Origin: Escherichia coli
GTDB lineage: Bacteria > Pseudomonadota > Gammaproteobacteria > Enterobacterales > Enterobacteriaceae
Reading direction: 5' to 3' (one strand)
DNA: 64,000 nt
Assembly: GCF_003019035.1 (NCBI RefSeq)
Contig: NZ_CP027447.1
Of the stretch, positions 8,480-20,861 are shown piece after piece (the stretch's first letter is position 1; each line of letters opens with the position of its first letter). The notes under the pieces are model-generated. The model saw only the letters and a program-made list of their open reading frames with translations, searched no databases and was not told where the DNA came from. A program made the position numbers and the translations under genes.

Positions 8480-8938
8480 ATGGCTTCCGATAACCTGGTC
8501 AGTATCACCATTAACGATAAATCCCTGCGCCGGAGCCTCCGTGCGCTGGATCTTGCTGCCACAGACCTGGAGCCCGCGATGCGCAAAATCGCCGGAACCC
8601 TGCTGGCGGAAACACAGTTTAACTTTCTTGATGAGGGGCGTCCGGGGTGGATGCCCTCGCTGGCAGCGGAAGAACGTGACGGGCAGACACTGCAGGATAC
8701 CGGGCGTCTGATGGGGTCAGTATCAACCGACCATGACGCCCGGCAGGCTGTTGTGGGGACCAACGTTGTTTACGGTGCCATTCACCAGTTCGGGGGTAAA
8801 ACGGGGCGTAATGAGTCTGTTGAACTTCCGGCCCGCCCGTTCCTGCCGGTGACGGGGGATGGAGAACTACAGCCTGAAGTGGTAATCCCCATCCTCGATA
8901 CCATTGTCCGCCATCTTGAATCAGCGGCCCGTCGCTGA
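8480..8938 (+). CDS. virion morphogenesis protein (Mu G-like), 152 aa
   Basis: Family resemblance; SD GAGAGGA. Confidence 0.6.
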   Translation: MASDNLVSITINDKSLRRSLRALDLAATDLEPAMRKIAGTLLAETQFNFLDEGRPGWMPSLAAEERDGQTLQDTGRLMGSVSTDHDARQAVVGTNVVYGAIHQFGGKTGRNESVELPARPFLPVTGDGELQPEVVIPILDTIVRHLESAARR

Positions 8939-9152
8939 GTTTTCTCTCTTCAGGCGGGTGATTTATCATTGCCAGCGAATGAGGGGCTGTATTACCTTTA
9001 TAAAGGCTTTACAGCCTCTGTTTTATAACCGCTTCCGGTTCACCGCATTGCTTTCCCTGTCCTTCTCCCCTGATGTTTTCTAAAGCAGATTAAAATCGCC
9101 GGGCCTGCATTTCTCACAAACTGTCTCCGACAACATAACGCGGGACAGCAAA
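8939..9152 (+). promoter_or_regulatory. 214-bp intergenic region inside the head operon with an imperfect palindrome centred on TTTATAAA; candidate late promoter (position of Mu PI)
   Basis: Long gap in an otherwise tightly packed operon; palindrome seen at ~8985-9020. Confidence 0.3.
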
Positions 9153-12496: not shown

Positions 12497-12747
12497 TGAA
12501 AGAATACCGCTATTCCGGCCCGGCCAGCGGCGTCACGCTGTGGGACGGAACCGAAATCCTGCTCTGGCCGGGGAAGACGGTTTCCCTGCCGGAGGAGCAT
12601 GACTACGTGAAGGTACTGGTGGCGCTGAAGCATCTGACGCCGGTACCAGAAGATACTAAACCCGCCGTCACACCGGCAGTGCAGTCACCAAAGCGCAGAA
12701 GCAGCAGTGACAGCGAAGTGAAAACGGAGGACTCCCATGGCAGCTAA
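12496..12747 (+). CDS. small phage protein (Mu gp38-like position), 83 aa
   Basis: ATG 12496 overlapping upstream stop. Confidence 0.4.
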   Translation: MKEYRYSGPASGVTLWDGTEILLWPGKTVSLPEEHDYVKVLVALKHLTPVPEDTKPAVTPAVQSPKRRSSSDSEVKTEDSHGS

Positions 12748-14164
12748 CTATCTGCATGGCGTCGAAACCATTGAGGTGGAAAACGGAGCCCGCCCGGTTA
12801 AAACGGTGAAATCTGCCGTTATTGGCCTGATTGGTACCGCCCCGATGGGGGATGTCAATACGCTGGTACAGTGCCTGTCTGAGAAAGACGCTGCGGCATT
12901 TGGCAGCCAGTTCACCGGCTTTACCATTCCGCAGGCGCTGGATGCGATTTATGACCATGGTGCAGGCACCGTTCTGGTCATTAACGTACTCGATCCGTCT
13001 GTGCATAAAACCGCTGTGGTCAGTGAGAATGTGTCGTTCGACAAGGCGACAGGCAGAGCCCGGCTGGCTAATCCGGTGGTCGCGCAGCTGGTACTGAAAC
13101 CGGACAGCGACGGTCAGCCTTATGTTGAAGGTCAGGACTACTCGCTTGATGCACAGACCGGGGTGATTACTAACCTGGGTAAAAGCATTGCTGCAGATGC
13201 AACGGTGAAGGCCAGCTATAACTATGCTGATCCGACCAAAGTCACCCCGGCTGATATCATCGGTACCGTTAACGCTGCAGGCAACCGTACCGGCATGAAG
13301 CTGCTTAACGACAGTTTTAACCTGTTTGGCTACTTCGCCAAAATCCTGATTGCTCCGGTATTCTGCACCCAGAATAGCGTCTCGGTTGAGCTTATCGCCA
13401 TGGCTGAGAAACTGGGAGCAGTAACCTATATTGATGCGCCGGTTGGTACCACTTTTGCGCAGGCTCTGGCGGGACGTGGCCCGGAAGGCACCATTAACTT
13501 TAATACCAGCTCTGACCGTGTCCGCCTGTGCTACCCGCATGTGAAGGTATATGACCCGGTGACGAACACGGAGCGTCTGGAGCCACTGAGCCAGCGTGCG
13601 GCGGGCCTGCGTGCCAAAGTCGACCTGGACAAAGGGTACTGGTGGTCATCCTCCAATCAGGAAATTCTGGGGATCACCGGCGTGGAGCGCCAGCTGTCGG
13701 CAATGATTGACGATCCGCAGAGCGAGGTGAACCTGCTTAACGAACAGGGGATCACCACGGTATTCAGCAGTTACGGCAGCGGCCTTCGTCTGTGGGGTAA
13801 CCGGACGGCAGCATGGCCAACGGTCACCCATATGCGTAACTTTGAGAACGTTCGCCGCACCGGTGATGTGATCAACGAGTCCATTCGTTACTTCAGCCAG
13901 CAGTACATCGACATGCCGATTACTCAGGCGCTGATTGATGCACTGACGGAGTCGGTCAACGCCTACGGTCGCAAAATGACTGGTGATGGTGCGGTACTGG
14001 GCTTCCGTTGCTGGTTTGATCCGGCCCGCAATCCGGAGACGGAGCTGGCCGCCGGGCACCTGTTGCTGAGCTACAAATATACGCCACCACCGCCGCTGGA
14101 GCGACTGACGTTTGAGACTGAAATCACCTCGGAATACCTGTTAACCCTGAAAGGGGGCAACTGA
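12737..14164 (+). CDS. contractile tail sheath protein (Mu L-like), 475 aa
   Basis: Size, order, sheath-like sequence. Confidence 0.8.
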   Translation: MAANYLHGVETIEVENGARPVKTVKSAVIGLIGTAPMGDVNTLVQCLSEKDAAAFGSQFTGFTIPQALDAIYDHGAGTVLVINVLDPSVHKTAVVSENVSFDKATGRARLANPVVAQLVLKPDSDGQPYVEGQDYSLDAQTGVITNLGKSIAADATVKASYNYADPTKVTPADIIGTVNAAGNRTGMKLLNDSFNLFGYFAKILIAPVFCTQNSVSVELIAMAEKLGAVTYIDAPVGTTFAQALAGRGPEGTINFNTSSDRVRLCYPHVKVYDPVTNTERLEPLSQRAAGLRAKVDLDKGYWWSSSNQEILGITGVERQLSAMIDDPQSEVNLLNEQGITTVFSSYGSGLRLWGNRTAAWPTVTHMRNFENVRRTGDVINESIRYFSQQYIDMPITQALIDALTESVNAYGRKMTGDGAVLGFRCWFDPARNPETELAAGHLLLSYKYTPPPPLERLTFETEITSEYLLTLKGGN

Positions 14165-14685
14165 TGTCAAAGATTGAGATAAACCGAATCACGAATGCCA
14201 ACATCTATCTGGATGGTACTAACCTGCTGGGACGGGCTGAGGAAGTTAAACTCCCCGATGTCTCCATGATTATGCAGGAGCACAAGGCACTGGGGATGGT
14301 GGGTAAGGTGGAACTCCCGGCTGGTTTTGACAAACTGGAAGGCGAAATCAAATGGAACAGCTTTTACCGCGATGCGATGTTGTCTGCCGCGAACCCGTAC
14401 AGGTCGCTGGCGCTGCAGTGTCGCTCCAGCGTCCAGCGCTACAGCTCGCAGGGGCTGATCGACGAAATCCCGCTGGTCACCTTCCTGACAATTATGTTCA
14501 AGAAGAACCCGCTGGGGACGTTCAAACAGCACGAGAACGCCGAGTTCTCCAGTAGCTTCACCTGCACGTATATCAGACAGGTACTGGATGGTGAAGAGTT
14601 GCTGCAACTGGACTATCTGGCCAACATCTTCCGCGTCGGTGGCGTTGATCAACTGACTGACTATCGAATCAATATCGGGGGCTGA
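14164..14685 (+). CDS. tail tube protein (Mu M-like), 173 aa
   Basis: Size and position after sheath. Confidence 0.75.
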   Translation: MSKIEINRITNANIYLDGTNLLGRAEEVKLPDVSMIMQEHKALGMVGKVELPAGFDKLEGEIKWNSFYRDAMLSAANPYRSLALQCRSSVQRYSSQGLIDEIPLVTFLTIMFKKNPLGTFKQHENAEFSSSFTCTYIRQVLDGEELLQLDYLANIFRVGGVDQLTDYRINIGG

Positions 14686-14687
14686 CG

Positions 14688-14969
14688 GTGAGTGTTGAAC
14701 TGACTGACAAAGGAGGGCGATGTGCGTCACTGGGCATGTCAAATGGTACGTGGTTTACCCTCCTTGATATTCCGGGGGTGGAGACCCTCTTTAATACCCG
14801 TAAAACCAATGACCCGATTGACTGCACACGTTCAAAGGCCCGCAAACTGGCCGATTTGATTGAAGCATGGGAGCCGCCCGACCAGTGGTTCTCCGGCACC
14901 GGCAACTCTGAGGGAAAGGCGCTTCTCATCGCTTTCCTGCGTAACTGCAAGGGTTTTCGCACTTGCTGA
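14688..14969 (+). CDS. hypothetical protein, 93 aa, GTG start, followed by a terminator
   Basis: ORF immediately after tube stop; strong terminator directly downstream. Confidence 0.35.
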   Translation: MSVELTDKGGRCASLGMSNGTWFTLLDIPGVETLFNTRKTNDPIDCTRSKARKLADLIEAWEPPDQWFSGTGNSEGKALLIAFLRNCKGFRTC

Positions 14970-14976
14970 CATCACA

Positions 14977-14998
14977 GGGGCTCCGGCCCCTTCTTTTT
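14977..14998 (+). terminator. rho-independent terminator GGGGC-TCCG-GCCCC followed by TTCTTTTT
   Basis: GC stem plus T-tract read directly. Confidence 0.6.
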
Positions 14999-15066
14999 AA
15001 TCCCCTTTAATATCCGTCACGTCCACCGCCAGACATACTGCTCTGAATTTACAAAGGAGTATGATC

Positions 15067-15402
15067 ATGTCACAGACCCAGTCCGATACTTTTACGCTGT
15101 CTTATCCTTTCACCACTGCTGCAGGTACCAGAATTGAACAGATTGAACTGAAACGCCTGACAGTAAAAGACCTGAAGCAGGTGCGCAAAATCAACAAAGA
15201 CCCGACAGACTGGGACGAACCACTGATTGCCCGTAGCACCGGTATCCTCCCGGAAGACCTCGATAACATGGATCTTGCCGACTATATGGAGCTGCAGAAA
15301 CGATTTCAGAAAATCACTGGGCTGGGCAAGAGCGACAAAAACACTGATGCAGGCGCAGGGCCTGCTGGCGAGATGGTTCAGGTTTCAACCGGGGGAGATT
15401 GA
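15067..15402 (+). CDS. tail assembly chaperone (Mu gp41 position); SD AAGGAGT
   Basis: Position immediately upstream of tape measure. Confidence 0.55.
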   Translation: MSQTQSDTFTLSYPFTTAAGTRIEQIELKRLTVKDLKQVRKINKDPTDWDEPLIARSTGILPEDLDNMDLADYMELQKRFQKITGLGKSDKNTDAGAGPAGEMVQVSTGGD

Positions 15403-15484
15403 TGCCCTCGATACTGACGATCTGGAGATGTGGCTGGAGCAGGCTGAAGAGCAAATCAAAAGCGAGTTCGGCGACAATCAGTAA
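15227..15484 (+). CDS. overlapping +1/-2 frame ORF, probable frameshift extension of the tail assembly chaperone
   Basis: Open frame overlapping the 3' half of the chaperone gene with no SD of its own. Confidence 0.35.
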   Translation: MPVAPVSSRKTSITWILPTIWSCRNDFRKSLGWARATKTLMQAQGLLARWFRFQPGEIDALDTDDLEMWLEQAEEQIKSEFGDNQ

Positions 15485-15577: not shown

Positions 15578-18043
15578 GTGGCCAGTGAATTTTCAGTCGG
15601 CGTCATTATTGGCGGCATTGTCGGGAGCAGCTTCCGCTCAGCCGTCAGTGGCACCCGACGCGCCCTTGATTCCCTTGGTGATACCTCCCGCCGTCTGCAG
15701 GAACGCCAGAATGCCTTAACCCGGGCAACAGAACGTTATGGTCAACTGGGTTCTTCCCGGATGCAGCATCTCAACAGCGAGTTGCTGCGGGTAAGCCGCA
15801 CCATGGAGCAAATTGAACGTCAGCAGCGCCGTCTGTCAGCAGTATCAGCCACCGGTGATGCGTTGAAGGCTAACCGCCTGGCGCTCTATGGTCAGGGTGC
15901 AGAAACCTATGCTATTGGCAGAACGCTGGGCGCACCGGTCATGGCCTCGGTTAAACAATATGCCTCGTTTGAATCACAGTTGCGGGATATCAGTGTCACA
16001 GGAGACCTGGATGCAAAACAGGAACGTGCAATTGGCCAGGCTATCAGACAGGCCTCGCTGAAGGTTAACCAACTGCAGGAGTCTCTGTTAGGGGGAGTCG
16101 GACAATTAGTTGCTGATGGTATGGCCCCCGAACGGGCAGCAACGTTTGCAGAGATGCTTGGAAAGACCGCTACAGCAACCAAAGCCGATATGACCGACCT
16201 TGCCAAAATGACTTATGCCTTCAGCGATGCACTCAGAATCACTGATGCGAAAGAACTTGAACAGGCGTTTGGTATTGCGGCAACAGGAGCCAAACTTGGG
16301 TCATTTGAGCTGAAGGATATGGCAAAAGCATTACCCGGTATGGCTAAAGCCTTCGCTGCTCGTGGTATTTATGGAAAAGATGCGATTACCCAGATTGTTG
16401 CCAGTCTGGAGGTCGGTAAAGGTAGTGGCTCTGCAGAGGAAGCGGTCACCAATATGTCCAACTGGCTGGCAGCAATGGGCCGCGGAGATACCATCCAGAA
16501 ATATGCTAAAGCCGGGGTGGATTACCAGGGGTCAATGCAGAATTACGTCGCTCAGGGTTTTTCGCAGTACGAAGCTTCACTGATGATTGCCAACCGTTTT
16601 ATCGACAGTAAAGGCAAAGCGTTCTTGCAGCAATGGAAAGCTGCAGGAGCAAGAGGCGATCAGGAAGGTCAGCAGAAACTCATGGAGTCATTTGGTCTGG
16701 CTGAGGTCTTTACCGATATTCAGACTGTCAACCATTTACTGTCAATGCGACAGGGCTGGGATAAATACCTTTCCAGTAAGCAGGAAATGAATGCTCCGGC
16801 TGCAATGTCTACCCTGGATAAGGATGCTGCAAAGCAGAATGATACGCTTGAAGGTCGCTGGCGCAGAATGCAGATCGGCTTTAATGATTCTGCTATCAGC
16901 ATCGGGCAATCCTTGCGTCCGGCTTTGCTCCAGTTGGGTGAAACATTTATTCCTTTAATGGACAGCGTCGGCAAATGGATAGCGGCAAATCCGCAGCTCG
17001 TCAGCAGCACCATAAAGGTTGTGGGCGCATTACTCGCTTTCAGGATGGCCACTATCGGTCTCAAGTTTGGGCTGAATCTCCTTATTTCCCCCTTTGTAAG
17101 CGTCTGGAAAAATGCTGTTTTACTTCGGGCCAACTGGCTTCGTCTGATGCTCGCACTGGGGGAAGGCGGTAAACTCCGCTGGCTGGTGACAGGCTTTGGT
17201 GCCGTCGCCAGAGGAGCCAGAACACTGGGGGGTGTGCTCTCAGGGGGGCTGGTTCGCGGAATTATGAGCGCCGGGCGTGCCGTTCTCTGGATTGGCCGGG
17301 CGCTGATGATGAATCCCATCGGTCTCGCTATCACCGCCGTCGCGGCAGCAGCTTACCTTATCTACCGCAACTGGGGCGCGGTCAGTAGCTGGTTTAAACA
17401 GCGCTGGGCTGACATTCAGGAAGCCTTTAACGGCGGTATCGCGGGAATTGGTAAACTGCTGGTTAACTGGTCTCCGGCAGGTCTGCTTTATAAAGCCTTT
17501 GCGGCTGCGCTGAAATATCTCGGCGTTGATTTGCCGGCGAAATTCACCGACTTCGGTGGTCATCTTATTGACGGGCTGATAAATGGCATCAGAAACAAAT
17601 GGGAGTCACTGAAAACCAGCATAACCGGAATGGGTGACAGCATCAGTGACTGGTTCAGCGAAAAGCTGGGCATCCATTCACCGAGTCGCGTGTTTATAGG
17701 CTTTGGTGACAATATCGCGCAGGGTGCCGCCATTGGCCTGCAACGGACCACTCCGCTTGCTGCACTGGCCGGGCAGCGCCTGGCCGCTGAAATGACACCG
17801 GATGTTCCCCGTATCCCGTCGCCGGAAATCATGGCTGCCGGATATTCAGGCCGTGGCGCAACGGCAACCGGCGGTGGAGCGTCTGGCGGTATCCAGGTCA
17901 GCTTTAATCCTCAGTTTTTCCTCAATGGTAAGGAAACCGCAGCGCCTGCCGGGCTGACTGGTGCCCTGAATATGAGCCTGCATGAGCTGGAAAAAATGCT
18001 GGAGCGTCTGCTGGCTCAGAAACAACGTAAGGAGTACAGCTGA
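15578..18043 (+). CDS. tail tape measure protein, 821 aa (GTG start)
   Basis: Length, Ala/Gly-rich repetitive sequence, position. Confidence 0.8.
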   Translation: MASEFSVGVIIGGIVGSSFRSAVSGTRRALDSLGDTSRRLQERQNALTRATERYGQLGSSRMQHLNSELLRVSRTMEQIERQQRRLSAVSATGDALKANRLALYGQGAETYAIGRTLGAPVMASVKQYASFESQLRDISVTGDLDAKQERAIGQAIRQASLKVNQLQESLLGGVGQLVADGMAPERAATFAEMLGKTATATKADMTDLAKMTYAFSDALRITDAKELEQAFGIAATGAKLGSFELKDMAKALPGMAKAFAARGIYGKDAITQIVASLEVGKGSGSAEEAVTNMSNWLAAMGRGDTIQKYAKAGVDYQGSMQNYVAQGFSQYEASLMIANRFIDSKGKAFLQQWKAAGARGDQEGQQKLMESFGLAEVFTDIQTVNHLLSMRQGWDKYLSSKQEMNAPAAMSTLDKDAAKQNDTLEGRWRRMQIGFNDSAISIGQSLRPALLQLGETFIPLMDSVGKWIAANPQLVSSTIKVVGALLAFRMATIGLKFGLNLLISPFVSVWKNAVLLRANWLRLMLALGEGGKLRWLVTGFGAVARGARTLGGVLSGGLVRGIMSAGRAVLWIGRALMMNPIGLAITAVAAAAYLIYRNWGAVSSWFKQRWADIQEAFNGGIAGIGKLLVNWSPAGLLYKAFAAALKYLGVDLPAKFTDFGGHLIDGLINGIRNKWESLKTSITGMGDSISDWFSEKLGIHSPSRVFIGFGDNIAQGAAIGLQRTTPLAALAGQRLAAEMTPDVPRIPSPEIMAAGYSGRGATATGGGASGGIQVSFNPQFFLNGKETAAPAGLTGALNMSLHELEKMLERLLAQKQRKEYS

Positions 18044-20805: not shown

Positions 20806-20861
20806 ACCTTCTTAAACGCCTTTAATATCGGCGCTTACTTCCCGGGGGCAATACTGCCTCC

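Follow-up and report, generated by a model that had tools for sequence, protein, structure and literature searches.

A small open reading frame stands between the tail tube and tail assembly chaperone genes of a Mu-like prophage in the Escherichia coli DNA analysed here, a stretch of 64 kb that we refer to as the window. Its position raises the question of whether it is part of the tail, a moron or an accessory gene of another kind, and of whether the terminator behind it is its own. The contractile-tail module lies on the + strand at 12.7-18 kb of the window and includes the sheath gene (12737-14164; PF04984/PF17482), the tail tube gene of P2 FII type (14164-14685; PF04985, E 2.9e-53), the small frame, termed ORF93 (14688-14969), the tail assembly chaperone gene of gpE / Mu gp41 type (15061/15067-15402; PF10109, E 4.6e-22) and the tape measure gene (15578-18043). 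The sequence-only reading had described a GTG-initiated frame of 93 aa after the tube gene, closed by a terminator, and both were confirmed, the latter as a hairpin and T-run at 14976-14998.

The region was 88-93% identical to Escherichia phage PhiKM, Klebsiella phage KP12 and Phi06_2974 B, all of which carry the same ORF in the same place. PhiKM is classified as a Bcepmuvirus, and the prophage is BcepMu-like and transposable. The synteny comparison with Mu-like phages that had been proposed showed that ORF93 is extra with respect to both Mu and BcepMu and is shared by PhiKM and KP12. The order tube-ORF93-chaperone was also kept in Photorhabdus, where the ORF is 67% identical, in Klebsiella and in metagenomic relatives. 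Of 5426 complete E. coli genomes, 640 contained segment 14100-15500, O25b:H4-ST131 among them, and in 631 of the 640 at least 80% of it was covered, ORF93 being retained in these. The prophage thus occurs in ~12% of the complete genomes of this species, including those of ST131, and because it is so common ORF93 is among the commoner uncharacterised phage proteins of clinical E. coli.

Taken alone, ORF93 was not beyond chance, as the window holds 152 ORFs of at least 100 aa, and the hairpin had a z-score of -1.98, with 17 terminator-like sites observed in 10 kb against 9.1 expected in a simple scan. Since neither is statistically remarkable, the case rests on comparison with relatives. The HMM search suggested for the 93-aa product gave a full-length match to phrog_1239, a family of 'unknown function' (E 2.8e-47, residues 1-93 on 1-96 of 96). 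Against Pfam DUF7739 (PF24881) ORF93 scored 25.8 bits (E 1.7e-5), the gathering cut-off being 27 bits; a precomputed PF24881.2 match is present on proteins 95% identical to it, and DUF7739 was matched by 18 of 57 aligned family members, with a best E of 4e-19, whereas no other model was. The dN/dS of ORF93 against five relatives was 0.12-0.18, and the sheath and chaperone genes fell in the same range. The motifs NGTW, TNDP, WxPPxxW and FxxxCxGF are conserved in the family, in which the conserved positions are mainly aromatic, together with N19, D42, K77 and C87. By comparison with its relatives, ORF93 was thereby shown to be a true accessory gene coding for a protein of the DUF7739 / phrog_1239 family. 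We also noted a 97-aa GTG-initiated ORF on the − strand (14669-14962) that is wholly antisense to ORF93; since both homology and the balance of synonymous and non-synonymous changes suit the + frame, we regarded it as a shadow ORF.

The family is small. A profile search over 1.84 billion representatives returned just 89 proteins with E <1e-3, nearly all of them stand-alone and 90-100 aa long; the long multi-stretch matches to CARD-repeat and PA14-repeat proteins in the same search were discarded as repeat artefacts. In their source records the homologues are all named 'hypothetical', with no annotated or experimental function, and a PDB sequence search with the family profile gave no match even at E 10. 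PADLOC and NCBIfam scans of the 57 family members yielded isolated chance-level matches only, and a literature search on DUF7739, DUF2737, phrog_1239 and hkaH found nothing relevant.

We then compared the tube-to-chaperone slot across 80 IMG/VR loci whose tube proteins are 79-100% identical to that of the window. ORF93 was intact in 44 of them, in 4 cases with a Phage_gp49_66 gene (PF13876) upstream, and decayed by frameshifts, a 5' deletion or an in-frame internal deletion in 10. The slot was empty, at 81-146 nt, in 12 loci; it held a 66-aa acidic protein (phrog_9518, pI 4.2) in 8 and a 100-110-aa Fer2-like protein that has lost its cluster cysteines (PF00111, E ~1e-6; phrog_844) in 3, and in the remaining 3 it was ~400 nt long and contained no convincing ORF. 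The absence of a Mu counterpart, as previously suggested, was borne out, the tube-chaperone gap being 9 nt in Mu and 121 nt, without a gene, in BcepMu. Slots without a gene were also found in Burkholderia vB_CB2b, in a Salmonella prophage (tube 74% identical) and in Pseudomonas phage Bise.

Three sub-lineages contained both cargo-bearing and cargo-less members (pairs L006/L077, L092/L095 and L079/L078), and in each pair the alignment was near-perfect up to and including the tube stop and resumed shortly before the hairpin, the two parts being separated by a clean indel. Furthermore, two loci with equally similar tails differed in the slot: L063 (tube 94.8%, chaperone 75%) has ORF93, whereas L062 (tube 94.8%, chaperone 76%) is empty. 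Together these clean indels and this contrast indicate that the slot is a recurrent insertion/deletion point and ORF93 its dispensable cargo. Absence or a frameshift in close relatives with matching flanks had been named as the observation that would speak against the gene, and it was indeed made in part of the relatives: among those with 90-95% identical tube proteins, ORF93 was found missing, replaced or decayed. This pattern points to a dispensable accessory gene rather than to an unreal one. With 10 of 54 ORF93 copies in the IMG/VR sample decayed, any benefit that the gene confers must be conditional.

The other cargos deserve a brief description. Tandem cargo, consisting of a Phage_gp49_66 gene and then an ORF93 homologue, was seen in L052, L053, L058, L064 and L085, where the slot is ~660 nt long; Phage_gp49_66 (PF13876) is related to Sf6 gene 66 and N4 gp49. 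The Fer2-like genes are located at L092:3573-3875, L097:3537-3869 and L100:3537-3869, with the cluster-binding cysteines replaced (LPYSGRAGSDSSSAARL). In L092 the gene has a hairpin of its own and a TATAAAT ahead of it, just past the tube stop, and on that account may be a true moron. In L093, L094 and L096 the slot is ~400-410 nt and GC-rich, with only arginine-rich, implausible ORFs. The 66-aa phrog_9518 cargo (L073:3523-3723, L079-L086) has homologues in the lambdoid phage mEp390 and in N15 (gp56), from which it appears that the slot is drawing on a pool of small mobile accessory genes shared by temperate enterobacterial phages.

The hairpin behind ORF93 consists of a 6-bp stem with 5 GC pairs and a UCCG loop (AGGGGC-TCCG-GCCCCT, 14976-14991, + strand; -12.8 kcal/mol), begins seven bases past the ORF93 stop codon and is completed as a terminator by the T-rich tract TCTTTTT (14992-14998). 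An explicit stem search over the 62 distinct slot sequences revealed a GC-rich hairpin no more than 120 nt ahead of the chaperone gene in 60, empty slots included, and in 50 of the 62 the hairpin was followed by at least 5 T in the next 9 nt. The distance from hairpin end to chaperone start was 70 nt in the median (range 47-84), and cargo was always located upstream of the conserved hairpin. In Burkholderia vB_CB2b, which has no cargo, GGCCCGC-TTCG-GCGGGCC and then TTTTTT come directly after the tube gene; in the cargo-less Salmonella prophage the slot contains the hairpin TTCGGGGC-TGCG-GCCCCGAA; and at the tube-chaperone junction of a P2-type phage a hairpin is present but no T-run. The terminator had been read as ORF93's own, which these data contradict: because a hairpin is present whatever the cargo, and in empty slots too, the comparison showed that the predicted terminator belongs to the phage backbone and not to ORF93.

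Across relatives we counted 20 different hairpin sequences at the equivalent position, all with pairing kept; examples of the stems are GGGGC/GCCCC, GGAGGG/CCCTCC, CGGAGC/GCTCCG and GGCCCGC/GCGGGCC. The window contains the exact dyad in a single copy. Stems that vary while pairing is kept, and a dyad in single copy, point to a role at the RNA level, in termination or attenuation and possibly in 3'-end protection, rather than to a protein-binding site. We had considered the dyad as an activator-binding site repeated at late promoters, and rejected this for its single copy and lineage-variable sequence. An Rfam search of 14500-15200 gave no match.

At its upstream end ORF93 is tightly joined to the tube gene. 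The tube stop TGA occupies 14683-85 and the GTG of ORF93 is at 14688, 2 nt further; the final tube codons, ATC GGG GGC TGA, provide a G-rich Shine-Dalgarno-like run (14676-14680) that ORF93 could use, and in relatives L007-L009 the last base of the tube gene is the start of the ORF93 homologue. Given the 2-nt spacing, translation of ORF93 is probably coupled to that of the tube gene. The N-terminal MSVEL.DK is kept in the family alignment as far as Sf6 gp22, and we therefore preferred GTG 14688 over the internal ATG 14736 as the start. In the 240 nt before ORF93 (14450-14700), a scan found no sigma-70-like site that agreed with the consensus at 8 or more of 12 positions; the scan used the consensus only, which a weak or activator-dependent promoter within the tube gene could escape. 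The lack of a visible promoter and the close spacing suggest that ORF93 is not an independent transcription unit. The GC content was 0.539 for ORF93, 0.529 for the tube gene and 0.506 for the chaperone gene.

These features bear on the reading of ORF93 as a classical moron, which would be active in the repressed prophage and help the lysogen, for example through superinfection exclusion or anti-phage defence. Morons are independent transcription units with their own promoter, usually their own terminator and often a deviant composition (HK97/HK022; PMC3594210). ORF93 resembles them in being an extra gene between genes adjacent in related phages and in being horizontally gained and lost, and to this extent the suggestion of a small moron held; it differs in that no promoter was detectable, the terminator is that of the backbone and the composition equals that of the flanks. 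A lysogenic benefit would suit the high frequency of the prophage among complete E. coli genomes, and Tab, a small defence protein encoded in a late operon, provides a precedent (PMC10884400). On the other hand, the lambdoid homologues described below are located in a lytic early-left operon rather than in lysogen-expressed positions. Weighing both sides, we regard a classical moron as unlikely, although it is among the better of the alternatives.

Between the hairpin and the chaperone gene is a leader of ~70 nt that contains the blocks CTTTAATATC and, ~20 nt on, CATACTG, and is conserved across all slot states. In the window it provides a bipartite motif, TTAATATC-N20-ATACTG (15007-15040, + strand), a candidate late promoter or leader. 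Apart from this site, the strict pattern matched the 64-kb window once, at 20822-20856, immediately ahead of a baseplate gene, against 0.01 matches expected by chance. A relaxed pattern, TTAAWATC-N20-21-AWRCTG, gave 4 sites in the window and 0 in 100 shuffles, statistics that are generous in that the pattern was composed after seeing the sites. All four (1905-1938, 9090-9123, 15007-15040 and 20822-20856) are on the + strand, intergenic and ahead of late gene blocks, the one at 9090 standing before a head protease/scaffold-like gene. The motif was present in 67 of the 100 loci compared, and PhiKM has three sites, all that its partial record can contain. TAAWAT within the motif is a fair -10 hexamer and there is no -35; the four motifs are, by this analysis, candidate activator-dependent late promoters. 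We also observed terminator-like hairpins with T-rich tails at 8921-8938 and 9004-9017 (+), in the 215-nt gap before the 9090 motif, so that this region repeats the terminator-then-motif layout of 14976-15040.

If the motifs are late promoters, the tail genes would fall into two units, and the split would belong to the phage rather than to ORF93. The proposal that a terminator divides the tail operon was accordingly right in placing a terminator between the tube and chaperone genes, but the division would be due to the phage and not to the small gene. The terminator-plus-motif layout provides a concrete, testable model for the partition of the late region into transcription units in BcepMu-type phages. 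The chaperone gene itself probably starts at ATG 15067 rather than at ATG 15061, the first in frame, since AAGGAG (15054-15059) is well spaced from the former; chaperones of relatives begin MSQ.... A GpE-like extension (..LARWFRFQPGEIDALDTDD..) lies in the +1 frame relative to the chaperone, in an ORF at 15227..15484, and the -1 frame looks non-coding, from which the chaperone may have a programmed frameshift other than the usual -1 type.

We extended the analysis to homologues outside this prophage. With tblastn, they were found in 18 other phage records, 38-54% identical and nearly all full length. Sf6 gene 22 has a DUF2737 gene on one side and ead/Ea22 on the other within the early-left operon, and lies beside an annotated mosaic boundary sequence. 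Homologues are also present in CUS-3, HK75 and Edwardsiella phage EPP-1, where the gene lies between Ead/Ea22 and the integrase side. DUF2737 is the HkaI-like neighbour in Sf6, and the two Sf6 genes overlap by 4 nt; in the 153-aa P0036, DUF2737 is joined to DUF7739 in one ORF, which is either a real fusion or the result of a lost stop codon. The surroundings of four distant members were arrays of unannotated small genes, with Erf, MT-A70, Bro-N, ADDT or LPD1 genes close by. Among the neighbours of the homologues in phage-plasmids and EPP-1, Pfam searches were informative only for Ead/Ea22 and HNH.

Further homologues lie in phage genomes of ~92-100 kb, and the two examined, ECML-606-1 and fHe-Yen8-01, look from their sequences like SSU5/pHCM2-type phage-plasmids. 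Homologues were likewise found in SSU5/P1-like phage-plasmids. In a plasmid collection, 102 of 105 matches were on non-mobilizable records and nearly all matches listed were on records of 91-119 kb; being non-mobilizable and of phage-plasmid size, these records led us to reject the idea that the homologues belong to the leading regions of conjugative plasmids. In Yersinia phage fHe-Yen8-01 (L005, 1-8303) the homologue, gp123, is annotated as a 'particle associated protein'. Its block also encodes a DNA methyltransferase and an ADP-ribosyltransferase toxin of 2147 aa, both described as particle-associated, and the arrangement recalls the anti-restriction proteins that P1 packages in its capsid.

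The annotation of gp123, which stands among other particle-associated proteins, raises the possibility that ORF93 is associated with the virion, packaged with the DNA and active at the onset of the next infection, which would be equivalent to early expression in lambdoid phages. A position in the late operon upstream of the terminator would fit such a role. However, the argument from gp123 derives from a single GenBank annotation, for which no paper was found, the Sf6-type homologues are early genes whose products are normally not packaged, and close relatives have an empty or differently filled slot. We consider packaging improbable, and more so than a classical moron.

The same comparisons showed that the product of ORF93 is not a tail component, because the slot is empty or swapped beside tube proteins that are 90-95% identical and because homologues occur in the early accessory regions of podoviruses that lack a tail tube. 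A related idea, that ORF93 is a tail-assembly accessory factor for this particular tube/chaperone pair, would explain why it lies between the two genes and is coupled to the tube gene. The podoviral homologues and the decayed copies tell against this too, and its presence and absence are interleaved among equally similar tails, as L063 and L062 illustrate; we give this idea very little credence. That ORF93 is a chance or decaying ORF without function, as its frameshifted or internally deleted copies might suggest, is scarcely credible in view of the dN/dS values, the full-length conservation of the family across unrelated phage types and a confident predicted fold.

The fold was predicted with AlphaFold, which modelled ORF93 as a compact alpha/beta protein (pLDDT 87.3, pTM 0.77). 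In the model it may resemble small binding proteins of the DMP12, YfbM and CdiI type, and Foldseek searches with the model against PDB and BFVD returned nothing below E 1e-3. The computed pI of ORF93 is 7.64, with 11 acidic and 12 basic residues; we therefore rejected a DNA mimic, as the protein is near neutral and not strongly acidic. By inspection, ORF93 has no signal peptide or hydrophobic segment.

Overall, we consider it the best explanation, with a probability of about 60%, that ORF93 is a real accessory gene occupying a variable slot terminated by the phage backbone, and that it is co-expressed late without being part of the tail. Judging from its position, ORF93 would be the last cistron of a late head-sheath-tube transcript, upstream of the terminator, and its synthesis would be late and abundant, matching that of the major tail proteins. 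Read-through, the candidate late promoter at 15007-15040, or both would then serve to express the chaperone and tape-measure genes. As to function, we suggest tentatively, at well below even odds, that ORF93 may be a small cytoplasmic alpha/beta binding protein that targets a host factor or a component of host defence, in counter-defence or host modulation, and not the virion. Usefulness in some hosts only would account for the pattern of gain, loss and decay.

A further proposal is that the slot is a dedicated counter-defence island in which the DUF7739, gp49/66-like, phrog_9518 and cysteine-less ferredoxin-like cargos are interchangeable. Here cargo production would keep pace with that of the most abundant tail proteins, and the cargos would either dampen the host immune sensors that respond to late structural proteins or be packaged into the particle and injected. 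We rate this proposal as doubtful, about on a par with the moron. If it were true, DUF7739 would be a new anti-defence family common to lambdoid early operons and phage-plasmids. Slots of this kind have proved good sources of genes for defence and anti-defence, and four or five small candidate proteins are available in this one.

On the preferred reading of an accessory gene in a backbone-terminated slot, the kind of object is ordinary, a horizontally mobile accessory gene; the slot is well defined and previously unremarked, in a very common E. coli prophage. ORF93 has moved from an odd small ORF to a defined, testable object, and together with the other cargos provides candidates for anti-defence and host-modulation screens.

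Several known systems can be set beside this locus. The closest in sequence are the Sf6 gene 22 protein and HK620 HkaH-like proteins, which belong to the same family as ORF93 (DUF7739, PHROG 1239); the homologues concerned are 41-53% identical along their full length. Genes of the Sf6/HK620 type are located in the early-left accessory region, by DUF2737 and Ead/Ea22, or in phage-plasmids, whereas ORF93 is in a late tail operon. Among possible structural counterparts, the Neisseria DNA mimic DMP12 (3w1o), YfbM (1ryl) and CdiI-E479 (5j4a) are 6-14% identical to ORF93, with no match at the sequence level, and unlike CdiI-type immunity proteins ORF93 has no cognate toxin adjoining it.

In organization, the locus can be compared with variable loci of other transposable phages. 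In JBD30-type phages, anti-CRISPR loci lie between the G and protease/scaffold genes. Tab, of 83 aa, is encoded by the Pseudomonas Mu-like phage JBD26 within the late operon, between the terminase genes (PMC10884400). Like ORF93, these are small, variable, non-structural genes at fixed intergenic points of the late region; they differ in having no sequence similarity to ORF93, in occupying other slots and in being expressed in the prophage or early from their own promoters.

Finally, Mu itself offers a comparison for the late region. Margolin, Rao and Howe are said to have reported in 1989 that the Mu late units Plys, PI, PP and Pmom are activated by C. The Mu late region is likewise arranged in several units, each after a shared -10-like motif without a -35, and four motifs were found here. 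In Mu, the tube, chaperone and tape measure genes are in one unit with the 9-nt gap, whereas in this prophage a terminator and a candidate-promoter motif lie between the tube and chaperone genes.
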